From the NCBI GenBank assembly GCA_963921275.4, contig OZ001293.3, forward strand, positions 704,001 through 768,000: a stretch of 64,000 bases of DNA. The letters run 5' to 3'. Each line of letters starts with the position of its first letter. The stretch's first letter is position 1. The position numbers and the translations under genes were made by a program. Origin of the DNA: an uncultured Hormoscilla sp. GTDB lineage: Bacteria > Cyanobacteriota > Cyanobacteriia > Cyanobacteriales > Desertifilaceae. The notes under the pieces are model-generated. The model was not told the origin of the DNA. It ran no database searches and saw only the letters and a list, made by a program, of their open reading frames with translations. Of this stretch, positions 7,960 to 47,506 are shown piece after piece.

Positions 7960-7976
7960 AAACCTTTACATTCGTT

Positions 7977-19305: not shown

Positions 19306-19311
19306 AAGAAC

Positions 19312-20296
19312 CGTGTGGTGCGAATCGTTTTGGCGTAAGTCTGAAATATGGCGATCGCCGGGCTGGTTAATACCAGCAACTCTGGTCATCATGGGGGTTC
19401 AATTCCCCTTCCCCCAGGTACGGGGGTGACACCGGTCCTCGGTGCTGCGGAGTAACATTACCGTGGTGCCTCCCGAGGACAAATGTAGGATAAGGTCTCA
19501 GCCCAGAGACCGACGCCGCTAGGAAAGAGGCTCATGGTTAGAGCAAGCGAATCCCTGTAAGCATCGTCATCTTAAACAAGCGAAAAGAGGCTGACACGCT
19601 TGGTGCAAAATGCGCACGCAGTCCGCGTATCAGTGGTTGCACGTCACTGATATCGTACCCGAAATGACTGCCGGTGTATAGGGGAGACCTAAAAGCCTCG
19701 TGAAATGATACCAGGGAACGTTCCGGACAAGAGCGGTGCTGTCCAGATGGACAAGTCAGATGTGCGTCCGCGTAGCGTGCGCGCAGCGCCTAGCGCATGC
19801 CCGCGTGGGGAGGGAGGTCCTAAGAAGCTAATGCCCGGGGTAATGCCTGTGGATATGCAGACGTAGGACGGATATGGTAAAAAGCTCTAGGAGATAGTAG
19901 CCCTCTAAACGTGCTTAACCAGTGGCAACACTAGGTAGTAATGATGGACTTAAATCCTAACCGGGTAAAAATTTAGAGGCCCCATACGGGCACCTGTTAG
20001 TAAAGAACGGTCATAGTGGTTTTCTAGTTCCCCCCCGTAAACCTTCCGGAGTTAGGTACTCAACTAGTTCATGACTGACCATAAAGGGGCTATATTTCAT
20101 AGGGCAAGGGACAACGGGAGTAATCCCTAGTAATCCTACCCGTGACAAGGGTTTACCAACCAGTAGCCGTGTGCGGTGAAAGTCGCTCTTCAGGTTCCGA
20201 ATGGGAGGATTGTCCCGCGAGGGACAGCTCGACCCCGACCAGGAGCGAACCAGTGAGGGCACCGAGACGAAACACGGCCAGTCGTCGGTGCCCTTT
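19312..20296 (+). ncRNA. yfr2: Yfr2-like small RNA split by a group II intron (exon 1 about 19312-19317, exon 2 20241-20296)
   Basis: Ligated exons read CGUGUG|AGGAGCGAACCAGUGAGGGCACCGAGACGAAACACGGCCAGUCGUCGGUGCCCUUU: GUGUGAGGAG 5' motif plus a terminal hairpin with a GAAACA loop. Confidence 0.75.
19318..20240 (+). mobile_element. ORF-less group II (IIB-like) intron, 923 nt
   Basis: GTGCG start; EBS1 loop TGCACG at 19638-19643 pairs with exon CGTGTG; AGC-containing DV at about 20164-20197 with a mismatched 3' strand; DVI ends GACCCCGACC. Confidence 0.85.
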
Positions 20297-20483
20297 CTGA
20301 TCTAAAACATCTCCACCACCGCATCCATTGAGCAGTTATCAGTGAGCAGTGACCACGTACCATGCCGAGTGACCACTTATTAGCATAGTTTCTGGCGAGC
20401 AATATTTATATTGCTAATAATATCATGTTATCTATTGACAATTGTAAATTCGCAATTGACAATTTGGCATTTATGACATATTG

Positions 20484-20502
20484 GTGCGACTCGTTTAGTG
20501 TA
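20484..20502 (+). mobile_element. First 19 nt of an RT-family group II intron (host of a twintron)
   Basis: gtgcgactcgtttagtgta matches the 5' end of the minus-strand RT intron (gtgcgactcgttcagtgta) at 18/19 positions. Confidence 0.75.
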
Positions 20503-20866
20503 GTGCGATTCGTTCTAGTCTAACGTGGGCAACTACGGAACGCTAGGCCAGGTCCAAACTGGTAACTCTGGTATTCATGGGGGTTAGATTCCCTCTCTCC
20601 AAGTGTGGGAGTAACACCGGTCCTTAGTGCTGCTGAGTCACATCACGGTGGTGCGGAGCAAGGACTTAAATGTAGGATAGCTAGCAGCCTAAGCTAGTGA
20701 CGCCGCTAGGAAAGATGCTAATGGCTAGAACAAGCGAACCTGTGTACGCCTCGTTATCTAGAACCAGCGAAATAAGGCTTAAAGCGCTGGCCCAAAAGGG
20801 AAATGGTAGTTTGTGCTGGTTCTTGCACTTGGCCAGTATCGCACTCTAAGAACTCCCGGGGTATAG
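20503..20866 (+). mobile_element. Truncated group II intron (domain I only) of the ORF-less family
   Basis: Colinear with 23059-23423; EBS1 TGCACT at 20824-20829 pairs with upstream AGTGTA; breaks off after ctcccggggtatag. Confidence 0.8.
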
Positions 20867-22354
20867 CAGGGGCTCAGTTCGGGGCTTTTGCCTAATCTTG
20901 TGCTCCAATATGTGAGGTTCCCGTCGTATGGGCTTGCGGTCCCTTTCACTTTTACGTGTCTGATTATCTCAGTTTCGGAGTGTTTACGTATCTTCATATC
21001 ACCCTCTTTTGTCTTGCTTCGGAATCGCCATTTAGCATCCTGGTTTACAGACCAGTATTTATAGGTTATCCAGTTACTTGACTTGTTAGGGTGCCTCCTT
21101 TTGGCCCATTGCCATAGGATGTTCCATAGGTAGTTGTCCATATCGCTGTAAATTTCCTTGCTTACCACTGTCCTAAAGTAGTTTGACCATCCCCTTATTA
21201 TCGGGTTTAGCCTGCTTATTAGGGCCGCTTGTGGTGCTGTTATATGGCTAGTTACCATTTCTGATAACCGTTCTTTATGCTTCCCTATGGACTTATTACT
21301 GGGTTTGATTAGGGTTTTGAATCCTAGGGGTGTTCCGTTTGTTGATTTGCCGGTTCTGTATTTTCCCTCTTTATATTGCCTTATGTTAAATCCTAGGAAG
21401 TCGAATCCCGGGTTTTCTCCATTTAGCCTGTGGGCTATCTTTGTCTTTTCGGGCCTTCAACTCAAGCCCTATTCTTCTTAGCCACTCTGCCACCACTGTT
21501 TGCGCTCTGTCTATCATCTCCCTGTCTTCATGCATGATCACAAAGTCGTCTGCGTATCTGACTACCGTCAGCTTTCGCTTTTCCCTTTGTGTCTTTGCTA
21601 ATTCCATTACTGCTTCCTCTAACCCCTGTAGGGCTATATTGGCTAGCAGTGGGGATATGACACCCCCTTGTGGCGTTCCTGCCTCAGTTGTGTGCCATAT
21701 CTTCTTGTCAATCACCCCGGCTTTTAACCATGCCCGTACTTGTTTACGGATTGGTGACGTAGTATTTAATTTTTCGACTAGCGCTTTGTGGTCTATCCTG
21801 TCGAAACATTTCGCAATATCTGCATCTAATACCCATTTGGGTTTCTGTTTAATGCTGCTGAATATTGCCGCAATTGCATCGTGGCATCCCCGACCCGGTC
21901 TGAATCCGTATGAGTTCCCCTCCATATATGCTTCCCATTCGGGTTCAAGCGCAATCTTGAGGAGCCCTTGATTCGCGCGGTCGTGCATCGTGGGTATTCC
22001 TAAAGGACGTTTTTCTTCTCTCCCTGGCTTAGGAATCCATACACGACGTGTAGGCTTAGCCTTGTTTGAGATTTCAATCTGTCCTACCAGTTCTCGGCGT
22101 TGCTTTGGGGTTAGTGATTTCACACCATCCACACCGGCTGTCTTCTTTCCCTGGTTATCTTGTGTAACCCGTCGTACCGCTAGACATTTGGCAGCCCGGG
22201 AGCTTACCAGTAACCTTTGGAGCCTGCGAACTTTTTGCTTATTGCCTTCTTGTGCCGCTCTGTAAATTCGTTTTTGCAACTTAAAGACTACCCGTTCCAG
22301 CCGAGGCCAGGGGATATCCTTCCATTCATTCATCGATTTTGACATCGTGCTCAT
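20867..22354 (-). pseudogene. Group II intron reverse transcriptase/maturase, frameshifted near 21453 and truncated
   Basis: GKKTAGVDG, RPLGIP, YGFRPGR, GTPQGGVISPLLANI, RYADD; domain X LNPIIRGWSNYF after the frameshift. Confidence 0.92.
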
Positions 22355-22973
22355 GACGTATGTATTGCTACTTACAACTTTACAATTGACGTTACCGTGA
22401 GGGCGTCAGCATATCCCATCCATTACAGAAAGGCGTTAGCTTCTCCGCGAAATCTTTCCCAGATATAACCTGCCGAATGTAAGCAGATGTTGCGCCTTTG
22501 GTGGCTGCTCAACCTATCGACCGGTGGTTGAGAGTATGTACCTGGTTTACTTCGTTCCTCTAGATGATTGGTCGTAGTTTTAGGTGGATTCCTTATGCCG
22601 GGTTTATTGTCGGTGCTTATTGGTCAGAATTCAAACCGCCAATGACCATTATCCTTTCCCTTTTGGGCCAGCGTGTTTAGCCTTATTACGCTGGTTTGTC
22701 GTAACGACACTGTAAATCTTTGCTTTCGCTCACCGTGACTACTTGCACGCTGCGCGAAAAATCGGCGATGACCGGTTTAGGCTACCAGCCAGGGCGCCTT
22801 TCGTACCCGCTTCACGGATTGATGCCATCGCTACCGTGGGGTAAGTGCTGTCACTCCTGCACCTGGAGGGGTGGGCTTTCACCACCATCATCTAAAAGTT
22901 ATCAAGGCTAATGGAGCCTTGCCAGTGGTCCCCCTTCGGTTATCACCGGTGGTTTACACTGAACGAGTCGCAC
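20867..22973 (-). mobile_element. RT-encoding group II intron (chloroplast-like class), 3' end deleted
   Basis: GTGCG at 22973 on the minus strand, structured 5' region, then RT ORF; no HNH domain, DV or DVI before the junction with the opposing intron. Confidence 0.85.
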
Positions 22974-23045
22974 TAAAACGCCGACATTTTAACTTCTCTG
23001 TGCTGGGAAGCCGTAAAGTGTGTCTTACTACGAACGACTGACCCT

Positions 23046-24030
23046 CTATAGTGAGTCTGTGCGATTCGTTCTAGCCTAACGTGGTCAAACACGGAACGCT
23101 AGCCCGGTTTCATTAGCCGGGAACTCTGACCGCATGGGGGTTAAATTCCCCTCCCCCCAGGTACGGGGGTGACACCGGTCCTCGGTGCTACGAAGCGACA
23201 TCATCGTGGTGCTAAGCGAGGACTCAAATGTAGGATAACTGGCAGCCTAAGCCGGTGACGCCGCTAGGAAAGATATCCAAGGTTAGAGCAGGCAAACATG
23301 TGCAAGCCTCGTTATAAGGAACCAGCGAAATAAGGCTATATGCGCTGGCCTAAAAAGGAAATGGTAGCTAGTATTAGTTTTAGACTCTGGCTAATATAGT
23401 ACTCAAATAGCTCCCGGGGTATAGTGTGGACCTAAAGGTATCGCGAAATGTTGTTAGGGAACGAAGTAACCTCTCGTGTGCTGTCCATCAGGACAAGTTA
23501 GATGTTAAGCGCAAGCCACGGGGGGAGGGATGGCCCAAGAAGCGAATGCCCGGGGTAATTCCTGGGATAACATCTACAGTAATGTAGATGATGCTGGGTA
23601 GCCAGCGCTGACGTGGGTCGGTGATACTAGGAAGCTGCTGGAATGAGTAATCCTAAAAAGCCACGGAACTAATCCGAAACGCAAGTGGAGGATAAGGTAT
23701 GGATAACTGGTAAAACTGACTTGAAAATGGTGATACTAACGGTTATCAGAACAACCACTCGCTAAACCAGGAAAGGGAAGAAAAGACAGGCGGCAAGGGC
23801 TAACGGAAGTAATTCCTATTAAGTCTACCTATGAAAAGGGCCTAGTACCCAGTAGCCGGATGCGGTGAAAATCGCAAGTCCGGTTCCTCAAGGGAGGGTC
23901 GGGAAGCGATTCCCGGCTCGACCCCATCCAAATCATTTGTGTAAATATTCTGGTAAATCAGCGCCCAAACCCTTGCGGGGCAAGTATTTCAGCAAACACA
24001 GATTGCACAACTAATTTAGGCTAGCTATAG
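23046..24030. mobile_element. About 114-bp CTATAG-ended MITE whose left terminus is interrupted by a group II intron
   Basis: Removing 23059-23929 gives ctatagtgagtctaaatcatttgtgtaa ... ttgcacaactaatttaggctagctatag, an imperfect TIR. Confidence 0.7.
23059..23929 (+). mobile_element. ORF-less group II intron, 871 nt, copy 1
   Basis: GTGCG start; EBS1 AGACTC at about 23382-23387 versus exon GAGTCT; well-paired DV agccggatgcggtgaaaatcgcaagtccggtt; DVI ends ACCCCATCC. Confidence 0.92.
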
Positions 24031-24142
24031 GCGCTTTCGTGCCTGGGAAGTAGTAAAGTGTGTCTTACTACGAACGGGGAAGACACACTTTACTGCTTAC
24101 TACGAACGACCGGAAGCGTAAGTCCTGACTAACTGACAGATT

Positions 24143-24613
24143 CTAGGGCAAAATAAGTGGCAAAAATTTGTCTGTCACGACGCTATTAATTTCCTGTGGT
24201 AAGTGGTCCATGCAGGGTTTGAGAAAGCCTTTGGCCGAGTTGATTAGTTCGGCGGGGATGACGCCGTCTTTGATAATCTGCTGTTGGTCGTAGATGTCGG
24301 CAATGAATAGGTTTAGGGCCCTAATCCGCTGCTTCAGTCCCTGTTCCAGCTTGGCCCATTCAGCCGCTGCTACAATCCGGGGGATGATATCAAAAGGAAA
24401 AATTCGCTCGGTTCCTTGGCGGTCCCCGTAGACGTTGAAGGTGACTCCCATCTTAAACAACGCTATCTGTGCTGCTTGTTCTCGCTGCTGGAGTTCCCCC
24501 TCTGATAGAGGGTCAGGCGTTTCTATCAAAGCCGCAGATTCTGGGCGTGGCATGCTGGCAGTGGCAAAAAGTTCGTCGTAGAAGTCCCCTGGATCCTATG
24601 ATGTAAACTGCAC
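24143..24613 (-). pseudogene. Circularly permuted type 2 ATP-grasp protein, N-terminal fragment
   Basis: GVTFNVYG..ERIFPFDIIPR..GLKQR.RALNLF; early in-frame stop and truncation after LKPC. Confidence 0.8.
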
Positions 24614-24729
24614 GGGCTATTTTCTGCGATTGAGATCAATATTTATCATGCAGGTTCGTAGTGAGGATTTTAGTCCTCAAGCCGGTAAGCACTAAAGTGC
24701 TTACTACGAACCTAAAGTACTAACTAGGA

Positions 24730-25530
24730 ATGACTTATAACCGGTGGTCGCCGAAAGCTAAGCTGCTGCTAACTCTAGTGCAGCGGGATTTGGAAGCCCG
24801 ATACAAGGGTTCTGTTCTGGGTAATTTGTGGCCTTTGTTGAACCAGCTGTCACAGTTGCTGATCTATACCTATGTCTTCTCGATCGTCCTCAAGGTGAAG
24901 CTCAGTTTGTCTGGTGTACCGGCTAACAACTTGACCTTTGGCCTGTGGCTGTTCGCTGGCTTGCTGCCTTGGACGACCTTTATTACTAGCCTCTTGCAAG
25001 CCTCTACTTCTGCGATCGCCCAGCCAAATTTGGTCAAGAAAGTAGTCTTTCCCTTGGCCCTGTTGCCTCTGGTGCCGATTCTCGCAGCTTTTATTGAAAG
25101 TGGATTGGGAATGCTGACCTTAATTATCTTCACTAGCTTGTTCTCCCAGACCCTTCATGGTACTATCTGGCTTTTGCCCCTGGTCTGGTTGCCCCAGCTG
25201 TTACTGACCATGGGCCTGGGTTACTTGGCCGCTGGATTGACCGTGTTTCTCCGGGATGTGCCCCAAACCCTTGCAGTCCTGACTAATCTCTGGTTCTATG
25301 TCACCCCGATCGTCTATCCTGCTAATGTGATTCCCGAACCTTGGCGGACCTGGGTGCTTTGGCTTAACCCCCTGGCGGCGATCGTCCAGGTCTATCGCGA
25401 CCTGATTCTCACGGGACAGGTAAAGCATGTGGCTGAATGGGCGATCGCCACAGTTGTTTCTATCTTAGTCTTCTCAGGTGGCTTCTGGGTTTATCAACGC
25501 CTGCGCCCAGCTTTTGCTGATGTCCTCTAG
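24730..25530 (+). CDS. wzm: ABC-2 polysaccharide export permease (Wzm)
   Basis: RYKGSVLG.LW, KKVVFP, TPIVYP and FADVL motifs. Confidence 0.92.
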   Translation: MTYNRWSPKAKLLLTLVQRDLEARYKGSVLGNLWPLLNQLSQLLIYTYVFSIVLKVKLSLSGVPANNLTFGLWLFAGLLPWTTFITSLLQASTSAIAQPNLVKKVVFPLALLPLVPILAAFIESGLGMLTLIIFTSLFSQTLHGTIWLLPLVWLPQLLLTMGLGYLAAGLTVFLRDVPQTLAVLTNLWFYVTPIVYPANVIPEPWRTWVLWLNPLAAIVQVYRDLILTGQVKHVAEWAIATVVSILVFSGGFWVYQRLRPAFADVL

Positions 25531-25572
25531 ACTAGACTATCGTTCTGGCCCGCCCCGCCCTAAAGGGACGGG

Positions 25573-25625
25573 CGGTGTCTGAAGCATGCCGCGTCCTTCA
25601 GGACAAGAGCATGCTTCAGACACCG
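25573..25625. repeat. 53-bp hairpin element, copy 1 (copy 2 at 36781-36833)
   Basis: cggtgtctgaagcatgc...gcatgcttcagacaccg. Confidence 0.8.
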
Positions 25626-25830
25626 ATAATTGGTACAAAACCCGTCTGGGTTCGCTCGTTTCCTGACTCTGGCAGGGAACGTCTTCGGGAGGCAGAGCCT
25701 CCAGTCAGAATCATTGCTTCTAGACTAGCCTAGAGGCGGAGCCTCTAAAGCCGCGTCACCAGGCTCAGCCTGGTAACGAGATGAAACGAGAACCCACCCT
25801 ACACTCAACTTGAGATTACAGCCAGAAAGA

Positions 25831-27180
25831 ATGAGTGAAATTGCCATTTCACTAAAGAAAATATCCAAGTGCTTTCAGCGCTATGCCCGTCCGGCGGACC
25901 GCCTGAAAGAGCTACTGTTTCCTGGTAAAAGTCTGGCACAGAAGTTTTGGGCTTTGCGCGATCTCGATCTGGAAGTCCCCAAAGGACAGACTCTGGGTAT
26001 TGTCGGACGCAATGGTTCTGGAAAAAGTACCCTGCTGCAAATTATTGCTGCTACTCTCACGCCGACTACGGGTGCAGTTGAGGTGCAAGGCAGAATTTCG
26101 GCTCTCTTAGAACTTGGCAGCGGCTTTAACCCGGAGTTTACCGGTCGGCAAAATGTCTTTTTTAATGGACAGCTGTTGGGTTTGAGTCGCCGGGATATAG
26201 AGGATAAATTTGATGACATCGCCGCTTTTGCTGATATTGGTGATTTCCTAGAACAACCTGTTAAAACTTACTCTAGTGGCATGTTCGTTCGCTTGGCTTT
26301 TGCTGTCGCTACTAGCGCTGAACCTGATATTTTGATAGTGGATGAGGCTCTTTCCGTGGGGGATGAAGCTTTTCAACGTAAGTGTTTTGCTCGCATTCAA
26401 GATATTCGAGATCGGGGGGGGACGATTTTGTTTGTCTCCCATGCTGCGGCGACCATCGTGGAATTGTGCGATCGGGCTATTTTACTGGACGGCGGCGAAC
26501 TGCTCTTGCAGGGTACTCCTAAGTTTGTCGTTTCTAAATATCAGGAGTTTATTTATGCTCCGGGCGATCGGGTAGCATCTTTACGGCAAGAACTCCGCCA
26601 AGCTAATGAAAAGTTGCTGGCTGAGACTAATATAATAGGGTCAAAGAATATCCACTTAAATAGTAATCTTGAAGAAGAGACGCCAGAATTTTACGACCCT
26701 TCCCTAAATCCGGAAAACACGATATCCTACATTAGCCGGGGGGCAAAAATTATTAATCCCGGGATAACTACAATCGCCACCGGTAAGCTAGTAAATCATT
26801 TGAGCGGGCGTCGCAAATACCTTTACAGCTATTCAGTTCGGTTTTGGCAGCCCGCCCAGAATGTCCGGTTTGGTATGCTGATTAAAACTGTTAGTGGATT
26901 GGAGTTGGGAGGCGCTTCCTTTTCTCCTTCCTTTCATGAGAGCGTGGATTTTGAGGCCGAGCAAGTGGTCAGGGTAAAATTTAGATTTCACTGCCTGCTA
27001 CATCCGGGAGTTTATTTCTTAAATGCCGGAGTATCTGGTATGGTGGATGGAGAATTCGTTTACTTAGCCCGTTGTATAGATGCAGCTATCTTTCGAGTAA
27101 AATCGGAGGAAAAATCCTGTGGCAATGGAACGATCGACTTTAAGATTGAACCTAGTTTGAGTTTATCTGGGGAGGAGTGA
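25831..27180 (+). CDS. wzt: ABC ATPase Wzt with C-terminal carbohydrate-binding extension
   Basis: GRNGSGKST, YSSGM, LIVDE, VSH motifs plus a long C-terminal beta domain. Confidence 0.92.
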   Translation: MSEIAISLKKISKCFQRYARPADRLKELLFPGKSLAQKFWALRDLDLEVPKGQTLGIVGRNGSGKSTLLQIIAATLTPTTGAVEVQGRISALLELGSGFNPEFTGRQNVFFNGQLLGLSRRDIEDKFDDIAAFADIGDFLEQPVKTYSSGMFVRLAFAVATSAEPDILIVDEALSVGDEAFQRKCFARIQDIRDRGGTILFVSHAAATIVELCDRAILLDGGELLLQGTPKFVVSKYQEFIYAPGDRVASLRQELRQANEKLLAETNIIGSKNIHLNSNLEEETPEFYDPSLNPENTISYISRGAKIINPGITTIATGKLVNHLSGRRKYLYSYSVRFWQPAQNVRFGMLIKTVSGLELGGASFSPSFHESVDFEAEQVVRVKFRFHCLLHPGVYFLNAGVSGMVDGEFVYLARCIDAAIFRVKSEEKSCGNGTIDFKIEPSLSLSGEE

Positions 27181-27189
27181 GAACGGTAG

Positions 27190-29211: not shown

Positions 29212-29233
29212 GAATAATTACCAGAGATGTGAC

Positions 29234-36357: not shown

Positions 36358-36375
36358 CTCAGTCAAAAAATAATG

Positions 36376-36600: not shown

Positions 36601-37111
36601 TTTTATAATTCCTTATTATCTCTATCCTTTACCTCTATTGATATTGTTAACCACGATCCCCAGTATCTTCGTGATAGTAGTCGCCCAAGTCATGTGATAT
36701 TTTGCTGCCGATTGCGTGATGGCAATAGGGTATACCATATAATCTCCAACACTGAGTGATAGCAGTCATAAATGCCTGTGCGGTGTCTGACCCATGCCGC
36801 ATCCTTCAGGACAAGAGCATGGGTCAGACGCCGAAAGCATCACACTCCATTAGTTGTTAGTTGTTCATTGAGAATTGTTCATTGAGAATACATATTAGCC
36901 ATTAGCATCATTTTTACCATGTCATGTATTACAAAGTCCATTATTCATCAGTAACCTAGAAACTTGGTTTCTCTTATACGCAGTGCGCGACGCAGTCGCG
37001 CTATAAACCTGGTTTCTTAATTCAAAAGTGAGTGCTTCCGTTGTAACTGACTTGACAGGATAACCACTTCAAGTTATTATCTAATGCTCAATGCCGTACA
37101 GGAGTAAAGAA

Positions 37112-37759
37112 ATGAAGCCAAATGCTATGATTCTATTGATGACAGGGCTGAGTCTAGCAGTAATGCTGGCCATACCGTCGCAACTAAAGAATACCAAGGC
37201 AGTTGCCGCTAACCCAGTAGAAAATAATATTTGGCAAAAGGGATCCTTTCCAGTAGAAAATTTTCAGAACTATAGTTCCGGTTTTGGCTACCGCGAATAT
37301 CCATATCAGGGCTTTCATTATGGCTTAGACCTGGCAGCGCCGCAAGGTAGCTACATTCGCAGTTGGTGGAGTGGCAAAATAGTCGAAGTTTGGTCAGATA
37401 GCAAATGTGGCACCGGAATTATGATTCAATCAGGCAATTGGAAACATATCTATTGTCACCTCAAAGGTGATGTATTATCGGCAGATGGTCGCCCCTATTT
37501 GATCGATCGAGATGGCGGTATCCAACTTTGGCAGGGTCAACAAGTGTTAACTGGCCAGAGAATTGCTCGTGTAGGCATGAGCGGTCGCACTAATGGCCCC
37601 CACTTGCATTGGGGACTGAAGCATGCTAACCAATGGGTAGATCCAGCCCTAGTACTGAAAGCTATGTACAACTCTGGGCGGCAAAACCCCCATTGGCAGC
37701 GTGCCGCGCAGCGTGGCGCAGCCATAGCCGTGCGCGCAGCGTGGCGCAGCCATAGATAA
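37112..37759 (+). CDS. M23 metallopeptidase
   Basis: FHYGLDLAAP, YCHL and GPHLHW motifs; signal peptide; C-terminus extended by short repeats. Confidence 0.9.
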   Translation: MKPNAMILLMTGLSLAVMLAIPSQLKNTKAVAANPVENNIWQKGSFPVENFQNYSSGFGYREYPYQGFHYGLDLAAPQGSYIRSWWSGKIVEVWSDSKCGTGIMIQSGNWKHIYCHLKGDVLSADGRPYLIDRDGGIQLWQGQQVLTGQRIARVGMSGRTNGPHLHWGLKHANQWVDPALVLKAMYNSGRQNPHWQRAAQRGAAIAVRAAWRSHR

Positions 37760-37765
37760 TTGCTA

Positions 37766-39640
37766 TTAAAGACTTTTTACCAGTTTTTGTCCAGGCACTT
37801 GAGTATATTCAGCAACTATCTTGCGAAACTCGTCGCCCTCGATCGTTTCTCGTTCCAGCAGCAGATCCACGAGGCGATCCATGAGTGGTCGATGTTCGCG
37901 GAGGATGCAGCGAGCTTTTTCATAGCAGGCCATGGCAATATCCCGGATCTGGCGATCGATCTGAGTTGCCACAGCCTCAGAATACTCAGATCGAAGCATC
38001 AAATCGCGACCCAAAAACACCTCGTTACCGGGATTTTCCAAAGCCAATTGTCCCAGATCGGACATGCCATAGAGAGTTACCATCCTCCTGGCCAAGTTAG
38101 TGACCTTTTTGAGATCGTTACTAGCGCCATCAGTTATCTCATCGGAGCCAAACACCTCTACCTCTGCTGCCCTTCCCCCCAGACTGACGGTAATCTGGTC
38201 CAGGATCCAAGCCCGACTGTAGAGACCTTCGAGATCTTCATCGGGCACCCAACTAGAAAAACCGCCAAGCTCCCCCGATCGGGGCAGAATTGTAGTTTTA
38301 TCTAAGGGGTCAGCATTTTTCAGCTGGGTTCTCACCAAGCTGTGACCCACCTCCTGGTAGGCAATTAACCGCTTCTTCTTGCTATCTAGCAGGGGATTTA
38401 AGGTCAAGCCAATCGTCACCCGATCGATCGCATCGCTAACTTCTAAAGGTGTAATCGCCTCTTTGCGGCGACGGGCTGTCAAGATTGCAGCTTCATTGAG
38501 AACATTAGCTAAATCCGCCCCAGAAAAACCAGGAGTACGTCGGGCGATCGCCTCCAGATCCACGGACCGATCCAACTTCTTATTGCGGGCATGGACCTGC
38601 AAAATGCCCAAACGCCCCTTATAAGTCGGCAGATCGACGCTCACCTGACGGTCAAACCGACCCGGTCGCAGCAGGGCCGTATCCAAAACATCAGGGCGAT
38701 TAGTTGCGGCAATAATAATGATCCCATTGTTAGTTTCAAATCCATCCATTTCCGTGAGCAACTGATTGAGAGTTTGCTCCCGTTCGTCATTCCCGCCGCC
38801 AAGGCCCGTGCCCCGTTGGCGTCCCACCGCATCGATTTCATCAATAAACACCAAACAGGGAGCATTTTCCTTCGCCTTTCTGAACAAATCCCGCACCCGG
38901 GACGCCCCGACCCCAACGAACATCTCCACAAATTCCGAACCCGAGATGCTGAAAAATGGCACCCCCGCTTCCCCCGCGATCGCCTTGGCCATCAGAGTTT
39001 TGCCCGTGCCCGGGGCTCCGATTAACAGCACCCCTCTGGGAATCTTTGCCCCCAGGGCTGTGAACTGTTCGGGTGTTTTCAGGAAAGTAACCACTTCTTG
39101 CAGTTCTTCCTTAGCTTCTTCTATCCCCGCCACATCATCGAAATTTACTCCTGTTTTCGCTTCCATTTGAAAGCGCGCTCGCGACTTGCCAAAATTCATT
39201 GCTTGACCCGTCGCCTGAGAGGAACGACGCAAAATCATCATCAATCCCGTAATCAACAGCAGAATCAACAGCAAATTTGTTAATATCCCTAGAATCGCAC
39301 TGCTTCTAGCAGTCCGCTGCTCTCCAAATTCTACCTGATTGGCTTTCAGAGCCTCCAGCAGCTGGGGATTGCGATCGAATATTCTTACCTCGATTGTTTC
39401 CTTTTCGGAATCTAACTTAACTCGGGCAAGATTTTGCTCCGAGTCAATCTCAACGGCGCTCACTTCCCCGGCCTCAATTTTCTCTAACAGTTGGCTGTAA
39501 CTCAGTCGGGGGCGATTTTTCTGTGCCAGAGCTGGCGTTTTCCCCAGTCCAGATGATAACATCATCATCCCACTGAGGGTCAAGGCACTGCCTACTGCAG
39601 CAACATACCTCATCCATGCTTTCATCGAGTCCCTTTTCAT
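37766..39640 (-). CDS. ftsH: FtsH AAA+ protease paralog with altered zinc motif
   Basis: [30 protein letters not shown] reads QEVGH. Confidence 0.93.
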
Positions 39641-39830
39641 CTTTTCTCCTACTCAAGCCTGTTTCAGATCGCCTCCCATGGTCTTGGTTATGCATCAGCT
39701 GTTGCCGTACTTCTAGTATAGTGACTATAATAGGCGACAGCTCCCAAGCAGTCCCGTAAGGCAGGGGAACGCCAAAATGGAGTCAAGTACAGCCAGTAGT
39801 TGTTTGGGTGAAGCGTAGCGGTGGGATGGC

Positions 39831-41297
39831 ATGATTTTCTGGTTAATATTTTTGGGACTGATTACTTACTTCATTGTTAAGCGTAGCGTTGCCGGCAGCA
39901 CCCGGACGCCAGTATGGCTCTTGTGGCTAGTGCTCATGACACCGGCGCTGATTTGGACGGGGTGGACTTCGATCTATGGCCAGAATACGCCGCCGCCACG
40001 GGAGCTGATTTGGGGACCGTTTCTGATTTCTCCATTGCTGTACTGGTTGCTATTTCGGCTGGGACGCTGTCCGATGTCACGGCATCAGGCCGGACAGCAG
40101 CAAGATAAAAGTCGTACATCTGTCAAGCAGCAACCCACCCTGAAATTAGATCCCAAGGTCCAAAGCAAACTCAAGGACTGTTTTCCCTGGTCAGTCTACT
40201 ACCTGACAGAGATTGAGTATAGACCTCAAGTGGTAGTCTGTCGGGGGCGACTGCGCACTACACCTCCGGTAGCCTATCAGACGATTCGGTCCAATATTGA
40301 GGATCAATTTGGCGATCGCTTCTTGGTGCTGTTTCAAGAAGGCTGGAATAGTCAATCCCAACCCTTCTTTACCCTGTTTCCTAATCCCGATGTTAATGCC
40401 ACGGCTAAAAAGCAGACTCTCGAGCTGACGCGACCAGGTCTGGCCTTGGGACTGCTAGCTGTTACGGGTCTTACCACCACTTTCATCGGGACGATCGGGA
40501 TTGTATCGACAGAAGAACTTTTTGCCGACCCCAAACTGTTACTTTTGGGCATGCCCTATGCCTTGGCGCTGATGTTGATTCTGGGCATCCATGAATTAGG
40601 TCATTATCTGACAGCGCGGCATTATGACATCCGTACCACCCTTCCCTATTTTATCCCAGTGCCTTTTTTCCTGGGAACCTTTGGAGCCTTCATTCAAATT
40701 CGTTCGGCAATCCCTAACCGCAAAGCAGTATTTGATGTGGGCATTGCGGGACCAGTGGCAGGTCTAGTTGCTACATTACCTTTATTGCTGTGGGGATTAG
40801 CCCATTCCCAGGTAGTACCGGAAAACCCCAATGCTAACTTATTGAGCTTCACGGCCCTCGACCCCAAGAGGTCTACCTTACTCGTCCTTCTGAGTAAATT
40901 GGTCTTAGGCAGTGCTTTAAAGCCAGACAGCGCGATTCAACTCCATCCTGTGGCTGTAGCTGGTTATTTGGGGTTGGTGGTTACGGCGCTGAATTTGATG
41001 CCAGTGGGACAACTAGACGGAGGTCATGTTGTCCATGCTATATTTGGGCAACGCATCGCTGTACTCATTGGTCACGTGACTCGATTCTTAGTTCTGATTC
41101 TAGCAATGATTAAGCGGGAATTTTTCTTGTGGGCGATCGTCCTCTTGTTTATGCCAGTCTATGACGAACCAGCCTTGAATGATGTGAGTACTCTGGATAA
41201 CTGGCGCGACTTGGCTGGCTTGTTAGTAATAAGTTTATTATTGATGATTATTTTGCCGGCACCTAGGGCAATTACCCAGTTGTTATTAGGAGGTTGA
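39831..41297 (+). CDS. Site-2 protease (M50 family)
   Basis: HELGH and NLMPVGQLDGG motifs. Confidence 0.9.
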   Translation: MIFWLIFLGLITYFIVKRSVAGSTRTPVWLLWLVLMTPALIWTGWTSIYGQNTPPPRELIWGPFLISPLLYWLLFRLGRCPMSRHQAGQQQDKSRTSVKQQPTLKLDPKVQSKLKDCFPWSVYYLTEIEYRPQVVVCRGRLRTTPPVAYQTIRSNIEDQFGDRFLVLFQEGWNSQSQPFFTLFPNPDVNATAKKQTLELTRPGLALGLLAVTGLTTTFIGTIGIVSTEELFADPKLLLLGMPYALALMLILGIHELGHYLTARHYDIRTTLPYFIPVPFFLGTFGAFIQIRSAIPNRKAVFDVGIAGPVAGLVATLPLLLWGLAHSQVVPENPNANLLSFTALDPKRSTLLVLLSKLVLGSALKPDSAIQLHPVAVAGYLGLVVTALNLMPVGQLDGGHVVHAIFGQRIAVLIGHVTRFLVLILAMIKREFFLWAIVLLFMPVYDEPALNDVSTLDNWRDLAGLLVISLLLMIILPAPRAITQLLLGG

Positions 41298-41436
41298 TAG
41301 TTGCTAGTTGACGATCGCTTTATAAGCGAATTAAGAAACCAGGTTTCTTGAAGAAACTTGGTTTCTGGGTTACTGATTAATATAGAGTTATCGGCAAAAT
41401 TGAGATGCGACGAGCGCTGTATAATCAACAAGGAAA

Positions 41437-41919
41437 ATGAATAATGAACAAATAAAAATACTCCAACAGCAATTAATCCAAGCAGAACAGGAACGAGATC
41501 GGGCCTATGCCAGTGAGGCCAACTGGCATAAACTCTACGAAACGGAAGCACAGCAGCGTCGGACAGAGGCAGAGTTAGCGCAGCAAACTATTGCGGAACT
41601 CAAGGCGAAAATTCAGGAACTGCAAGCAGATCCTCCAGATTATTCCGGAACAGTAGGAGAATCTATTTCTGATGAAGCGATCGCTTCACTGGTGGAAGAG
41701 TTACAAATACCAGCAGAGTTGAAGCAGAAATTGCTCTTAGCCCTTAGGGAGCGCGATCGCCTGGCCCTGGCACTGCAAGCAGAAAAAGAGCAACATGCCC
41801 ATACTAAACAAAGTTTAACATCGACTCTGGTAGACGCGATCGAGCAGCTGAATAAAAACCGAGTTCAAAAGGAAGCATCTTCTGATCGCGCAGCGTGGCG
41901 CAGCCATGCGAACAGTTGA
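41437..41919 (+). CDS. Coiled-coil hypothetical protein
   Basis: 160 aa ORF with AAGGA RBS; WHKLYETEAQQRR. Confidence 0.7.
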   Translation: MNNEQIKILQQQLIQAEQERDRAYASEANWHKLYETEAQQRRTEAELAQQTIAELKAKIQELQADPPDYSGTVGESISDEAIASLVEELQIPAELKQKLLLALRERDRLALALQAEKEQHAHTKQSLTSTLVDAIEQLNKNRVQKEASSDRAAWRSHANS

Positions 41920-42152
41920 CAGTTGATAGTTGTCAGTTGTCAGCGCACAATTACGGGTTCGGTTCAGTTGTTAATAATTGATTGTTAACGATTATTGTAT
42001 TTATAAATAATCACGATTCAATTTTCGGCTACCAACGTAACGCGGGACAAATTCGCCCTAGGGAGCGGCCTCTATCTCTGTGGGCTGGAAGCCTTGCACC
42101 GTGGGCTGTCCCGGCTTAAGTTGGTAGCCTTAATACGGGAGAGCGGAACACG

Positions 42153-42431
42153 GTGATTACCAAAGGCGGTATGGCCCAGGTTACGGGCCATCGGTTGAAG
42201 TTCGATTTTTCGCGCAGCGTTCCCACGGATGCACTGCAAGGCATTTATCTGATCGACGAACAAAATAACCCCATTGCCATAATCATAATTGGGGAAAACA
42301 AACCTTCTCGCCTGATGTTCATGATGCCACCAGATCTCACTAGTGGAGAGTATACCCTGGAGGTGCGAACCAAAATAAACTCAGATCGACTGCGTAGCGG
42401 TCGCTTGGAGAAACAGTTGACAGTGGCTTGA
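42153..42431 (+). pseudogene. 3' fragment of an Ig-like (DUF4469-like) protein
   Basis: G.RLKFD...QGIYL...NKPSRL.F..P.L.SGEY.LEVRT pattern; no N-terminus. Confidence 0.5.
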
Positions 42432-42526
42432 TGGAAGCATATCCCGATCGGGGCCAAGCTGGTGTTGCTCAACGGGCCAATAAGGCAAAGGGTTTCCCGA
42501 AATGCAGCCGGAGGTTTTACGACTTG

Positions 42527-42700
42527 CAGCACTAGGGTTTGCGGAATAACAGCACTAGGGTTTGCGGAATAACAGCACTATGTTTTTTGGAATGACAGCA
42601 CTATGTTATGAGGAATAACAGCACTATGTTATTTTGAATGACAGCACTATGTTATGAGGAATAACAGCACTATGTTATGGGTGTGGTCTTGCGCCCGTTG
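42527..42700. repeat. 23-bp tandem array (7 unit starts) followed by the GGGTGTGGTCTTGCGCCCGTTG motif
   Basis: cagcacta starts at 42527, 42550, 42573, 42596, 42619, 42642 and 42665; motif at 42679-42700. Confidence 0.9.
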
Positions 42701-42901
42701 TTACTCGGCCTCGCCGCCCGAACCCGTGCATGGTCCGGCTACTCGAACTAAGCCCGCCTGCGCGGGCTATATTACATGCATCATTGATGCACCTGGCTAT
42801 CAACTACAAGTGATCGCACCCCGTTCCCACGGTTTGGCATCAGGCATACAACGAACGATCGCTAACCACTGACAGGCAAAGGAGCGGTCCTACGGCACTG
42901 A

Positions 42902-44014
42902 CTAAAACCCCATTGCTTGAGCTACTGAGCCGATATCTGGTTCAATTCCCCGCTGCAAGGGATTGTTGCTATGTTTAATGGCGATATCCGGGTCTTTCAA
43001 ACCGTTACCAGTCAGGACGCAAACTACTGTCGCCCCCGCTGGCACTTGCTCTTTGATCTTCAGCAAACCCGCCACAGATGCAGCAGATGCAGGTTCGCAG
43101 AAAATCCCTTCGCCACTGGCTAGCAACCGGTAGGCATCCAGAATTTCTTCGTCTGTGACAGCTGCAAATTGTCCTTGACTCGCTTCTTGGGCCGCGATCG
43201 CCTTTGACCAACTAGCGGGATTGCCGATGCGAATGGCGGTTGCTAATGTTTCTGGATCTGTTATTGGCTTTCCGGCGATAATCGGGGCGGCACCGGCGGC
43301 TTCAAATCCCATCATTCGGGGCAGGCGATCGCATTTTCCATCCTGATGATACTGACAAAATCCCATCCAGTAAGCAGTGATGTTGCCAGCATTGCCCACG
43401 GGGATGCACAACCAGTCGGGGGCATCTCCCAAATCATCTACTACCTCAAATGCACCGGTCTTCTGACCTTCTAAACGATAGGGATTGATTGAGTTTACCA
43501 GGGTGACGGGATAATCCGCCGCCATCTGCCGGACAATTTCCAGGGCTCGGTCAAAATTTCCCTTGATTGCCAGCACCTCCGCGCCGTAAACTAAAGCTTG
43601 AGCCAATTTTCCCAGGGCGATATAGCCATCTGGAACGATCACAAATGCTTTAAGTCCACCCCGCCGGGCATAGGCTGCTGCTGAGGCTGATGTATTGCCG
43701 GTGCTAGCACAAATTACTGCCTGGGCACCTTCTTCCTTGGCCTTGGAAACCGCCATCGTCATCCCCCGATCCTTGAAGCTGCCCGTGGGGTTCAGACCGT
43801 CAAATTTGACATATACTTGTACCTGTCTGCCGATCTGCCCCGTGATCGCCGGAGCCGGAATTAGGGGAGTGTTCCCCTCCAGTAAAGTGACAACTGGGGT
43901 AGTTTCAGTTACCGGCAGATAATTGCGGTAGGTTTCAATGAGACCGCGCCAGATGGGGCGTGTTGGGGTAGCCTTAAGGGAGTGGGAGTTTTCGGCTGAC
44001 AGAGTAAGAGTCAC
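42902..44014 (-). CDS. thrC: Threonine synthase
   Basis: [13 protein letters not shown] motif, [15 protein letters not shown]; start placed at GTG 44014. Confidence 0.95.
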
Positions 44015-44428
44015 TTTCGCTTGGTGGTTTGATTTCAATCTATTTGGTGCTTCTGTCCAGTTTAACCCGATTTTTCGCGCAGCGTTAGCCTGACCATAAT
44101 TCCGGGAAATCACCGATCTTTTTGGGGATCGCTAGATTACCGACTGTTGCCGACCGGCGTAGCATGGGAGCAATGCGGTGCAGGTACAACGGCAACTAGC
44201 TGCTTGTACCCAAACCCAGACAAAAAAGCAGTTTTTTGGGGAAAACCGGTCTAAGCAGTCTATACTCGGAATTGCTGAATTTTTGCCCGATCGCCCTCAA
44301 AACCCATACTCAGAGCAGATTATAACCTATGTGAAAAGATAATTTGTGCAATTGACACTAGAGCAGTATAATGATCGGGAACGATGGGGCGAGTTACCGG
44401 GCAAGTTACCAGACAAAAAACGAACAAA

Positions 44429-44932
44429 ATGAGTTTGACAGACCAAGTGATCCCAAATCCCAATACAATAGAACAATCATGGGTGTCTGTTCAGTTTCCT
44501 TTGACTACGGTAGGGGCACCGGTTGTTAATGGCGCTGGACGAGTTCTGATTGTTAAAACTACCAAGTGGCGGGGCACCTGGGGCGTACCGGGTGGTAAAG
44601 TAGAATGGGGCGAAACCCTAGAAGCGGCACTAGCCAGAGAATTTAGAGAAGAAGTCGGTCTAGAATTGACCCAGGTGCGCTTCGCATTATTACAAGAGGC
44701 TGTGCGAGACCCGCAATTTGTCCGGGATGCCCATTTCATCATGATCAACTACTATGCCTTCTCCGCGAGTGAAACCATTAGGCCCAACGAATAAATTGTC
44801 GAATGGGCCTGGGTGACTCCCCAACAGGCAATGTCTTATCCTCTCAATAGTTATACCCGCGTGTTGATTGCCGACTATATGGAAAAGATGATTGATAATT
44901 ATGAGGGCCAGGAGGAGAGAAGATCATGTTGA
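44429..44932 (+). pseudogene. NUDIX hydrolase with internal TAA
   Basis: PGGKVEWGETLEAALAREFREEVGL Nudix box; IRPNE*IVEWAWV continues in frame to overlap the next start. Confidence 0.8.
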
Positions 44933-45645
44933 AAAAGGCCCTGGTAACAGGATCGGCGGTGGGAATAGGACGGGCGATCGCACTGGATCTTGCAAGTAAA
45001 GGATTTGATGTCGCCTTTCACTATAATAAAAGTGCCGAAGCAGTCAAAAAAGCGAGTCAAGAAGCTGCTACCCACGGAGTAAAATATATTGCCCTGCAAG
45101 CAGATATCACCAAACTTGATCGAGCTAAGTTTCTAGTAGAAACGGCAGCGGAAAAACTCGGAGGCTTATCAGTGGTAGTAAATAACGTGGGTGACTATTT
45201 GGGAAAAAAAATTAGCCAAGTATCCGTAGAGGAATGGCATCAAATGCTTGATTCCAACCTCAATAGCGCTTTCTATGTTAATCAAACCGCAATCCCTTAT
45301 CTAAAGGCAGCAGGTTGGGGACGGATCGTCAACTTTGCTTTCGCTAGTGCCCAAAATATGATAGCAGATGACATGCATCCAGTCTATAGAATTGCCAAAA
45401 CGGGTATTATTGTCTATACTAAGTCCCTGGCATTAGAGTTGATTGAAGACAACATTACCGTAAATGTAGTTTCCCCAGGAGTTGCAGAAAATTCCATTGG
45501 TTTAGAGGGAACGATCCCGTTATTACCAACTAAAAGACCCGCAACCTTAAAAGAAATCAGCAATGCGGTGGGTTTCTTTATCAGCCCTGAAGCAGATTAC
45601 ATCACGGGACAAATTTTGGAAGTTGCGGGGGGGTGGAGGTTATAG
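44926..45645 (+). CDS. SDR oxidoreductase (FolM/pteridine reductase-like by context)
   Basis: TGSAVGIG, NNVG and YRIAK motifs; lies among pterin genes. Confidence 0.8.
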   Translation: MLKKALVTGSAVGIGRAIALDLASKGFDVAFHYNKSAEAVKKASQEAATHGVKYIALQADITKLDRAKFLVETAAEKLGGLSVVVNNVGDYLGKKISQVSVEEWHQMLDSNLNSAFYVNQTAIPYLKAAGWGRIVNFAFASAQNMIADDMHPVYRIAKTGIIVYTKSLALELIEDNITVNVVSPGVAENSIGLEGTIPLLPTKRPATLKEISNAVGFFISPEADYITGQILEVAGGWRL

Positions 45646-45732
45646 TGTGGCCTGGAGTTCCTAAATTATGAGTCAAGTGGCTGGGGAATTGTTGTAAGAC
45701 TGAAAAATTACTATCCTTGATGACAGGAGGTT

Positions 45733-47506
45733 ATGCTGACTCTAGAAAATATCTACGAAATTTATGAAAGACATAAAGATGCCTTCAATGCTAGAGTTGA
45801 AGAGTTTAAACTGGGAGACAAAAGGTTTAACTTTAACGATAGAAAATCAATTTTAGGAATTGTTAATCTTTCCACAGATTCTTGGTATAAAAACAGCGTC
45901 TGTTATAATCCAGAGCAAGCTGTACGTCGTGCAATGGTACAGAAAATTCAAGGTGCAGATATCATAGACATTGGTATAGAATCTACAGTGCAAACAACAG
46001 AGAGAGTCGATGCTTTTAAACAAAACAGTAAAGTTTTGCCAGTTCTGGAAAGATTAAGTCAAGAATGTGTTTTAACTTCAGTGGAAACTTATTATCCTGA
46101 AGTTGTCAGAGAATGTTTAAAGGCTGGGGCAAATGTTATTAATTTGACAGGAGCAGAGAAAAGGGAGAAAATTTACCAAATTGTGTCTGAGTTCGATGCG
46201 GGAATTATTATGTGTTACGTGCAAGGGAAAAACGTGAGGGAGTTGGGAGACCTTAAGGTTGGAGACGATCCAATAGATTTAGTGTACGATTATTTCGCCC
46301 GAGAAGTGGAAACAGCAACTAAATTGGGTGTCCGAAAGATTTTTATCGATCCTGGAATTTGCTTTAGCTACAGCAATCTTTACACAAAAGAGGAATTCTA
46401 TTCGTTGCGTATTTGATATCAGATAACAACTCTTTTAAATAGTTTTGGATGGGGTCGAGCCGGGAATCGCTTCCCGACCCTCCCTTGAGGAACCGGACTT
46501 GCGATTTTCACCGCATCCGGCTACTGGGTACTAGGCCCTTTTCATAGGTAGACTTAATAGGAATTACTTCCGTTAGCCCTTGCCGCCTGTCTTTTCTTCC
46601 CTTTCCTGGTTTAGCGAGTGGTTGTTCTGATAACCGTTAGTATCACCATTTTCAAGTCAGTTTTACCAGTTATCCATACCTTATCCTCCACTTGCGTTTC
46701 GGATTAGTTCCGTGGCTTTTTAGGATTACTCATTCCAGCAGCTTCCTAGTATCACCGACCCACGTCAGCGCTGGCTACCCAGCATCATCTACATTACTGT
46801 AGATGTTATCCCAGGAATTACCCCGGGCATTCGCTTCTTGGGCCATCCCTCCCCCCGTGGCTTGCGCTTAACATCTAACTTGTCCTGATGGACAGCACAC
46901 GAGAGGTTACTTCGTTCCCTAACAACATTTCGCGATACCTTTAGGTCCACACTATACCCCGGGAGCTATTTGAGTACTATATTAGCCAGAGTCTAAAACT
47001 AATACTAGCTACCATTTCCTTTTTAGGCCAGCGCATATAGCCTTATTTCGCTGGTTCCTTATAACGAGGCTTGCACATGTTTGCCTGCTCTAACCTTGGA
47101 TATCTTTCCTAGCGGCGTCACCGGCTTAGGCTGCCAGTTATCCTACATTTGAGTCCTCGCTTAGCACCACGATGATGTCGCTTCGTAGCACCGAGGACCG
47201 GTGTCACCCCCGTACCTGGGGGGAGGGGAATTTAACCCCCATGCGGTCAGAGTTCCCGGCTAATGAAACCGGGCTAGCGTTCCGTGTTTGACCACGTTAG
47301 GCTAGAACGAATCGCACAGACTCAGGAGGTTAGGGTTTCCAATTTGCAACCAAGTCCCCACTGCATCGGAATGTTTTGCAGAAGAGTTCAGAAGTTCTCA
47401 AACTTTTACTGCAGTGCTGGCGATATTGGGAAAAACAGATCTTATGAGAACTCATGAAGTGCCTAAAGTTAAGGCTGTTTTGGATACTCTGAGTTTATTT
47501 GAGTAG
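45733..47506 (+). pseudogene. Dihydropteroate synthase-like protein with an internal TGA and an antisense intron
   Basis: GIVNLSTDS, GADIIDIG.EST, IDPG; LRI*YQITTLLNSF | RLRRLGFPIC...RTHEV rejoins in frame after removing 46447-47317. Confidence 0.85.
46447..47317 (-). mobile_element. ORF-less group II intron, 871 nt, copy 2
   Basis: Reverse complement of 23059-23929 with the same length; upstream exon also ends TGAGTCT. Confidence 0.93.

Follow-up and report, generated by a model that had tools for sequence, protein, structure and literature searches.

Several hundred group II introns without reading frames in a Hormoscilla chromosome, probably mobilised in trans

Introduction

Bacterial genomes usually tolerate a handful of group II introns. 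The closest described system is that of Thermosynechococcus elongatus, with 28 introns, 17 of which lack an open reading frame (ORF), and with six families defined by their exon-binding sequences (EBS) (Mohr et al. 2010, PMC2882425). Its ORF-less introns were shown experimentally to be mobilised by the intron-encoded proteins (IEPs) of related introns, with driver IEPs acting in trans, and insertion into other mobile elements as well as selection for A-14/A-15 were described (PMC2882425). For Arthrospira platensis, 101 introns are given as the maximum over 1,790 representative bacterial genomes in a later survey (Miura et al. 2022, PMC8919778). Here we analyse the ORF-less group II introns found in a 64,000-nucleotide (nt) stretch of an uncultured Hormoscilla sp. 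genome (GenBank assembly GCA_963921275.4, contig OZ001293.3, positions 704,001 to 768,000 of the forward strand; hereafter the window, whose own numbering is used unless a contig or locus is named), together with their relatives in the rest of the genome. As the best explanation overall, to which we assign a probability of roughly 0.85, these are IIB-type ORF-less introns that spread by EBS-guided retrohoming with an IEP supplied in trans.

The Hormoscilla introns share a number of properties with those of T. elongatus. Like TeI3 and TeI4, they are of IIB type with EBS1, EBS2 and EBS3, and the nearest solved relative of the resident IEP is T.el4h (6ME0, E 1.5e-115). ORF-less introns outnumber ORF-bearing ones, the EBS-defined families fit their own sites, insertions into other introns and into repeats occur, and an A is conserved at -15/-14 upstream of the second intron-binding sequence (IBS2). 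The differences start with scale, as about 490 intron cores, 324 ORF-less introns with paired ends and at least 31 specificities stand against 28, 17 and six families in T. elongatus. There, the ORF-less introns derive from resident ORF-bearing introns, whereas the introns here show no sign of such a derivation, with 66-75% identity in the core, no similarity in domain 4 (D4) and no ORF remnants. The 3' end (GACY, UAAU or AUCC) exceeds by one nt the canonical GAC of five introns compared from a Thermosynechococcus-like genome, G172, and gamma' lies on the extra nt. Few T. elongatus introns reside in genes, in contrast to 39 frame-restoring sense sites here. Tandem arrays and self-insertion occur in the present genome; the word "tandem" is absent from PMC2882425.

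As in Arthrospira platensis, a filamentous-type cyanobacterial genome harbors CL-type introns at very high copy number. The count here exceeds the 101 introns of that species more than fourfold, a comparison that is approximate since the pipelines differ. We found no published report of a bacterial intron load larger than 101, in a search that left most subscription journals outside. The plastid group II/III introns and twintrons of Euglena are likewise often ORF-less, nested and served by few trans-acting maturases (PMC2882425). Euglena introns are, however, degenerate, some of them lacking domain 5 (D5), whereas the introns described here are complete six-domain ribozymes with conserved D5-D6, present, unlike in Euglena, as near-identical recent copies in a free-living bacterial chromosome.

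The mechanism is already known; the altered 3' end, the lack of a cognate sibling and the magnitude are new as far as we searched. We consider it possible, at somewhat less than even odds, that this is by far the largest bacterial group II load described so far (~490 cores, ~7.6% of the DNA, at least 31 specificities), formed by a derived ORF-less lineage with a remodelled 3' terminus and no cognate sibling that sits in sense in dozens of intact genes, and that the cell depends on a shared apparatus for splicing and mobility in trans. If true, a living bacterium would present a counterpart to the stage of intron invasion that has been proposed for early eukaryotes, and with one element present in 61 identical copies this invasion would still be in progress. 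Several hundred recent ORF-less introns of intact structure in a genome of culturable type, many of them inside genes, provide natural targeting variants of a single compact ribozyme by the dozen. Several questions would thereby become directly testable: how one protein, or a few, can be shared by many introns, how fast EBS loops diversify, how introns parasitise introns (through antisense insertion that inactivates IEP genes, as twintrons and in tandem arrays), and how a 3' splice site without the conserved penultimate A is used.

Results and Discussion

Intron Elements of the Window

Four elements are present at the starts where a preliminary description of the window, made from its letters alone, had placed them (19318+, 20503+, 23059+ and 47317-). 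They had been taken for members of one family, but fall into three, termed c5, c1 and c0. All four begin with GTGCG, in agreement with the group II 5' end GUGYG. The element at 20503 is not a complete intron, as it comprises 371 of the 835 nt of c1 and stops at 20873. The features that matter for the following are listed below, where RT stands for reverse transcriptase, D5-D6 for domains 5 and 6, and a caret for the insertion point.

19305..19317, +, 5' exon target of the c5 copy, from the upstream sequence and the family EBS assignment
19318..20240, +, complete ORF-less group II intron of 923 nt, family c5, ending ...CCCCGACC
19570-19574, 19638-19643 and 20162-20238, +, EBS2 TCTTA, EBS1 TGCACG and D5-D6 of the c5 copy
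20484..20502, +, initial 19 nt (GTGCGACTCGTTTAGTGTA) of an ORF-bearing-type intron, in which AGTGTA is the IBS1 invaded by c1
20503..20873, +, c1 5' fragment, family positions 1-371 of 835, 100% identity, without D2-D6
20757-20761 and 20824-20829, +, EBS2 TCTAG and EBS1 TGCACT of the c1 fragment, whose IBS1 AGTGTA lies at 20497-20502
20872..22973, -, ORF-bearing group II intron, positions 1-2059 of ~2400 nt, 3'-truncated, without D5-D6
20954..20975, +, vacant c0 target ACGTGTCT^GATTATCTCAG, junction 20961/20962, antisense to the broken RT gene
23046..23058, +, target of the first c0 copy, with IBS2-region CTATA at 23046-23050 (4/5 pairs) and IBS1 GAGTCT at 23053-23058 (6/6)
23059..23929, +, first c0 copy, complete ORF-less intron of 871 nt, ending ...CCCCATCC
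23315-23319, 23382-23387 and 23422, +, EBS2 TAAGG, EBS1 AGACTC and EBS3 U of the first c0 copy
23528, 23851-23927 and 23921, +, gamma G, D5-D6 and putative branch A of the first c0 copy
46447..47317, -, second c0 copy of 871 nt, 100% identical to the copy at 23059-23929
46989-46994, 46449-46525, 47318-47323 and 46446, -, EBS1, D5-D6, IBS1 GAGTCT and exon +1 A of the second c0 copy

The EBS1/IBS1 pairs read by eye in the preliminary description, TGCACG/CGTGTG, TGCACT/AGTGTA and, twice, AGACTC/GAGTCT, are all present. In the c5 copy, IBS2 TAAGA (19305-19309) forms 5/5 pairs with EBS2, and IBS1 CGTGTG (19312-19317) forms 6/6 pairs with EBS1, two of them being G-U. The exon +1 nucleotide of the first c0 copy is the A at 23930. 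Sequence comparison bears out that the two 871-nt copies, in which no differences had been noticed, are identical throughout. They sit at unrelated sites, their flanks having TGAGTCT upstream and AAA downstream in common and nothing more. The longest ORF within c0 encodes 53 amino acids (aa), and ORF-less elements of 835-923 nt are too short to encode an RT of their own. It had also been claimed that the complete copies carry no RT, which holds for the introns themselves; the region does contain an RT gene, though a frameshifted and truncated one.

Copy Number and Families

BLASTN against the whole genome reveals 139 uninterrupted 871-nt c0 copies at identities of at least 98.6% (mean 99.86%), all on the 6.88-Mb contig (C1), and 61 of them are identical to the window copy. 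Once copies that share carrier sequence are collapsed, 109 distinct sites with unrelated flanks remain, so that segmental duplication is ruled out as the origin of the family; flanks shared beyond IBS1 were found neither for the window pair nor for c0 as a whole.

The c0 family is part of a much larger population. A profile built from 41 D5-D6 sequences yields 491 hits, 450 of them near full length and all on C1, and the 5'-end motif GTGCGnn[TC]CG[TC]T occurs 467 times in the genome. Paired ends define 324 ORF-less introns with lengths of 600-1150 nt, as well as 28 spans measuring 2300-2500 nt, among which 26 are ORF-bearing introns. Judged by their 3' tails, the ORF-less type accounts for 391 cores and the ORF-bearing type for 78. 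At identities of at least 90%, the 324 ORF-less introns group into 46 families, with 144 entries in c0 (871 nt), 76 in c1 (835 nt), 17 in c2, 14 in c3, eight in c4 and seven in c5 (923 nt). Intron-derived DNA amounts to 533-558 kb, or 7.6-7.9% of the genome, with zero on the six small contigs. The gathering cut-off of Rfam RF00029 is passed by at least 148 genome matches among the 150 scored. Both window c0 copies match RF00029 with their D5-D6 at 44.4 bits (gathering 40), while D5-D6 of the c5 copy scores 45.5 bits with our own nhmmer profile and has no Rfam match at E<=1.

Misassembly classically arises at repeats of 0.9 kb, and a high copy number might in principle be produced by the assembly itself. 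Nothing specific points to such an artefact, and every copy has unique flanks within the 6.88-Mb contig. In two sequencing runs with the same organism label, which may be the assembly's own data and hence not independent of it, the k-mer depth of intron contigs is ~3000-8000, compared with 36-72 for the single-copy sequence of the flanking gene. We regard the probability of an artefact as practically negligible.

The strand of c0 copies displays no clean replication-related switch along the chromosome. Related introns occur in all four other species of the genus examined (8 to 196 first-look candidates), yet a c0-like element is found in only one of them (G004), at 91-92% identity. Among nine genomes from two other genera of the family, weak matches are restricted to one (G012). 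The sparse occurrence of c0-like elements among relatives indicates that the c0 burst is specific to the lineage of this species.

Target Recognition

We aligned one representative per family, which was possible for 36 families. Two hypervariable stretches stand out within conserved stems, one in the EBS2 loop (CCTCGTTA-NNNNN-AACCAGC, c0 positions 257-261) and one in the EBS1 loop (TTAGTnnT-NNNNNN-TGGCTAA, c0 positions 324-329). Together they form 31 distinct combinations across the 36 families. EBS1 pairs with exon positions -6..-1 at 5.13 of 6 positions at a family's own sites and at 2.70 at the sites of other families; for EBS2 and positions -13..-9 the corresponding values are 3.83 of 5 and 2.21. 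None of 20000 label permutations matches either result.

An unbiased column scan for complementarity to exon +1 singles out the domain 1 (D1) column at c0 364, complementary in 34 of 36 families (runner-up column 23), which we assign to EBS3. The presence of an EBS3-IBS3 pair places the introns in type IIB. The homologous column also pairs with exon +1 in 5/5 introns compared from G172. The same scan identifies gamma-gamma': in 33 of 36 families the final nucleotide of the intron is complementary to the J2/3 column at c0 470 (runner-up 28). Retargeting through EBS1, as first proposed from the window, is thereby confirmed genome-wide, but EBS1 does not vary alone, since EBS2 and EBS3 covary with the target as well.

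The 109 c0 sites follow the consensus A(-15). C C T T A(-9) n n G A/G G T C/T T(-1)^A(+1) and have nothing else in common. The alternatives in this consensus are A/G opposite a loop U and C/T opposite a loop G, the wobble pattern expected of RNA pairing. The conserved A at -15 is probably read by protein.

Two other candidate pairings were rejected. AAGGTT (c0 221-226), considered as EBS2, is conserved from family to family and lies in a predicted paired segment, and the covarying loop is that at c0 257-261. Covariation between the penultimate nucleotide and the nucleotide two upstream (33/36) was dismissed, as these positions cannot pair and few tail types exist.

Element Boundaries and the 3' End

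The c0 target ACGTGTCT^GATTAT that is vacant in the window at 20961/20962 is occupied in other copies of this ORF-bearing intron type, in the form ...ACGTGTCT[871 nt]GATTATTTCAG. Comparison of the two states defines the insert as exactly GTGCG...CATCC. The c1 site ...CAGTGTA^AACCACC, to which the 19 nt at 20484-20502 belong, is similarly found occupied by a complete c1 at two further loci and empty in uninterrupted ORF-bearing introns. When the element is removed exactly, 39 of 264 distinct sites regain a sense ORF of at least 250 aa, and shifting either boundary by 1-2 nt reduces this number to 3-4. For a c1 intron in a glutamate-synthase-like gene (C1:5580677-5581511), the predicted exon junction reads ...AGAGTTTG + AGACTGC.... 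Contigs of ~92%-identical relatives display ...ATTAGAAGAGTTTG joined straight to AGACTGC..., which is the exact predicted junction. These intron-less contigs come from two metatranscriptome runs, in which spliced RNA and an intron-less allele are indistinguishable. In addition, the gamma-gamma' and EBS3-IBS3 covariations are valid solely with the assigned element ends. Taken together, four independent lines (empty sites, frame test, relatives' contigs and covariation) indicate that the ORF-less introns truly end in GACY, UAAU or AUCC. The ...GACC (20240) and ...ATCC (23929) ends noted earlier in the window as departing from AY are thus the real ones.

Across the 36 families, the terminal tetranucleotides are GACT (11), GACC (11), TAAT (9), AACC (2), ATCC, GGCT and ATCG (1 each). 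The penultimate position is an A in nine families and a C in 27, which does not agree with an AY 3' end. The putative branch A is followed by 8 nt, compared with 6 in the Rfam consensus, and the Rfam alignment of c0 stops at an internal AU, 2 nt short of the element end. In G172 (2.6 Mb, 28 RF00029 hits), the homologous gamma of five ORF-less introns is a G that pairs with the C of a ...GAC end, and the next nucleotide is exon because it covaries with EBS3. The resident ORF-bearing introns end in ...UUUAAU. Both comparisons point at an extra terminal pyrimidine that is derived in the ORF-less lineage, with gamma' moved onto it.

These sites and boundaries also bear on whether the copies could have spread at the DNA level, with no RNA intermediate, through recombination, segmental duplication or the action of a DNA transposase. 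About one quarter of the c0 copies (144 entries at 109 distinct sites) lie in repeated carriers, namely other introns and a 0.6-0.8 kb repeat, and some of these were thus multiplied along with their carrier. However, the 109 distinct sites have in common only the 15-nt IBS2/IBS1/IBS3 pattern complementary to the loops of the element, and each of the 31 specificities fits its own sites. The boundaries are devoid of terminal inverted repeats and target duplications, and the sole difference between occupied and empty sites is the element itself. Spread as DNA is therefore very improbable as the general explanation.

Ribozyme Fold and Host Genes

Folding of 35-36 family representatives with RNAalifold supports a conserved ribozyme. 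D1 is predicted to form 116 pairs, 61 of which show compensatory double changes, with 95.6% of cells paired; D5-D6 form 27 pairs, 10 of them compensatory. The alignment of D4 is poor. A bulged or internal-loop A, the putative branch point, is predicted 8 nt before the 3' end.

Hosts that are interrupted in sense with their frame preserved include homologues of glutamate synthase and of MetH-type methionine synthase, a class III aminotransferase, a histidine kinase, a response regulator, restriction-modification enzymes, large repeat proteins and the RT genes of other introns. The intron in the MetH-like gene is a c1 copy at C1:1409762-1410596. Reading frames continue intact over the junctions for up to 999 codons, which speaks either for a very recent insertion or for effective splicing. 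The first exon of the glutamate-synthase-like gene contains an in-frame 81-nt segment (C1:5580582-5580662; positions 1883-1963 of locus L045) rich in GCGCAGC/GCTGC repeats, which is missing from the contigs of the ~92%-identical relatives.

Candidate Helper Proteins and Mobilisation in Trans

An intact ORF-bearing intron (locus L001) encodes a 590-aa protein with RVT_N, RVT_1, GIIM and HNH domains, whose best PDB match is 6me0_C, a T.el4h-type maturase RT. The maturase domain has 75 genomic matches. Elsewhere in the genome, seventeen T.el4h-like RT-maturase-HNH frames are open from residue 25 or earlier to residue 555 or later, 15 of them with an M start, and they form groups at 100, 85, 76, 73, 71 and 41% identity.

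L002 (C1:5051770-5054161) and four similar open frames, ~85% identical to L001, have EVDQI in place of EVDH in the HNH motif; with the conserved HNH histidine replaced, this group may be an endonuclease-deficient lineage. In intact ORF-bearing introns (L001 620-2392), the IEP ORF traverses D5 and D6 and ends 8 nt before the intron end, so that the C-terminal peptide ...VKVSRPVLKTSR.GD.LA is encoded by catalytic RNA domains. A divergent single-copy ORF-bearing intron at C1:~1775350-1778400, with an IEP of 41% identity, was considered as the mother element and rejected, its ribozyme being unrelated to the ORF-less lineage.

The course of events that we propose starts from ORF-less IIB-type ribozymes whose lineage is akin to that of the Thermosynechococcus T.el3/T.el4 introns. 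The intron RNA would recognise a DNA (and pre-mRNA) site through 5 nt of EBS2 at -13..-9, 6 nt of EBS1 at -6..-1 and 1 nt of EBS3 at +1. Excised RNA would then reverse-splice into the matching site, and a DNA copy would be made by an RT/maturase/HNH protein not its own, which ORF-bearing introns elsewhere in the chromosome would provide in trans. Mutation of the EBS loops would have given rise to at least 31 targeting specificities, each colonising its own set of sites, with c0 likely in a burst that is very recent or still going on. What we observe directly are the copy numbers, the exact boundaries, the covariation of all three EBS/IBS pairs, a fold conserved by compensatory changes and the open IEP genes. 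As the ORF-less elements are too short to encode an IEP and open frames exist elsewhere, mobilisation in trans appears to be the sole available route. The trans-acting maturase postulated in the preliminary description is thus a probable agent, well supported by the copies, the matching of EBS and IBS and the open frames.

Several observations weigh against this explanation. The normally conserved penultimate 3' A is absent from 27 of the 36 families, and all seven c5 members carry two non-canonical pairs in the lower D5 helix and are missed by Rfam. The glutamate synthase, MetH and aminotransferase hosts have diverged paralogues in the genome (41%, 67% and 78% identity), so that these hosts may be dispensable and the cell may not depend on their splicing. 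ORF-less and resident ORF-bearing ribozymes are 66-75% identical, in parts of D1 and D5 only. Between them, BLASTN with word size 7 and local alignment detected no similarity in D4/DIVa and no ORF remnants above chance (z <= 2 against shuffled sequences), so that the expected likeness in D4, the IEP-binding region, is missing. No ORF-bearing intron carrying a ribozyme of the ORF-less type was found in the genome. The weak core identity and the lack of D4 similarity signify that a cognate relationship of the T. elongatus type is absent. Splicing in vivo, the chemistry of retrohoming and the driver protein are inferred.

The same lack of an ORF-bearing sibling, the 66-75% core identity and the dissimilar D4 would be expected if the driver were a protein other than the resident T.el4h-like IEPs, either a lost cognate or a transient element, with the present copies perhaps stranded and some of them non-splicing. 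Such a reading also gains from the many IEP genes destroyed by antisense c0. On the other hand, with 61 of 139 c0 copies identical and the others differing by 1-3 nt, the driver was active very recently, and at least five IEP lineages still include open frames, 17 in total. Long host ORFs have remained intact over 39 insertions, and driver IEPs of relaxed specificity are documented in T. elongatus (PMC2882425). We therefore consider a different driver unlikely, and retain the resident IEPs acting in trans as the more plausible source of mobility.

Introns within Introns, Arrays and Carriers

A recurrent composite of ~3873 nt consists of an ORF-bearing intron with a sense c1 at about position 253 and an antisense c0 at about position 2026, within the IEP gene. 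Examples on C1 are:

1057198-1061070
1148034-1151906
3087391-3091263
3651009-3654879
4451358-4455230
4756421-4760293
6630463-6634335

The antisense c0 shortens the IEP frame to 486 aa, and eight maturase hits fall in 486-aa frames. Hence, potential helper proteins lose their genes to ORF-less introns.

Tandem arrays in which two and three c0 copies follow one another head to tail are found at C1:824934-826675 and C1:5447656-5450268. The upstream copy retains a good IBS flank and is followed directly by GTGCG. This arrangement fits repeated homing into one 5' exon, in which the G of the resident intron may have served as +1. Five c0 copies are split by another c0 inserted after position 768 (TTAAGTCT^A), at the following sites on C1:

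1325884-1327522
4741955-4743593
5180205-5181843
6029677-6031315
6410359-6411996

A further recurrent c0 site, CTCCTAGAGGATCT^AAACTCAG, lies within a repeat, with homology extending ~160-420 nt upstream and 240-400 nt downstream. Judged by these shared flanks, the repeat is apparently another mobile or repeated carrier. Examples on C1 are:

2174755-2175625
2454749-2455619
4220306-4221176
4604214-4605084
6423952-6424822

Other Features of the Window and the Genome

The broken ORF in the window has its RT part at 21386-22354 (-), with RVT_N and RVT_1, and its maturase part at 20779-21258 (-), with GIIM; the gene is broken because these parts lie in different frames. Over the N-terminal 322 aa, its product is near-identical to the L001 protein, which is intact at 590 aa. 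At 20872/20873, the c1 5' fragment (+) abuts the 3'-truncated ORF-bearing intron (-) tail to tail, suggesting that inverted intron copies were rearranged or underwent a deletion between them.

The second c0 copy is located between convergent genes, an HPPK gene (47624-48169, -) and a Pterin_bind ORF (45733-46416, +). The latter matches profile positions 2-176 of 244, ends 30 nt before the antisense c0 copy and may have been truncated by the insertion. Other genes of the window encode a Crp-type regulator, ABC-2/Wzt transporter components and a short-chain dehydrogenase.

Contig C3 (31,420 bases) differs in G+C content from the chromosome (17.6% vs 47.4%) and could represent an unusual replicon or else DNA of foreign origin or contamination. 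Isolated short intron-like fragments of 52 and 65 nt occur at 25570-25621 and 36771-36835, apart from the main elements. By eye, we noticed GCGATCGC palindromes in the window, a motif that we take to be cyanobacterial, and a ~30-nt motif (GGGAAG..GTAAAGTGTGTCTTACTACGAACG) flanking the first c0 copy at 23006-23040 and 24044-24110. One copy of the latter has an inverted half alongside, and the motif resembles a small repeat.

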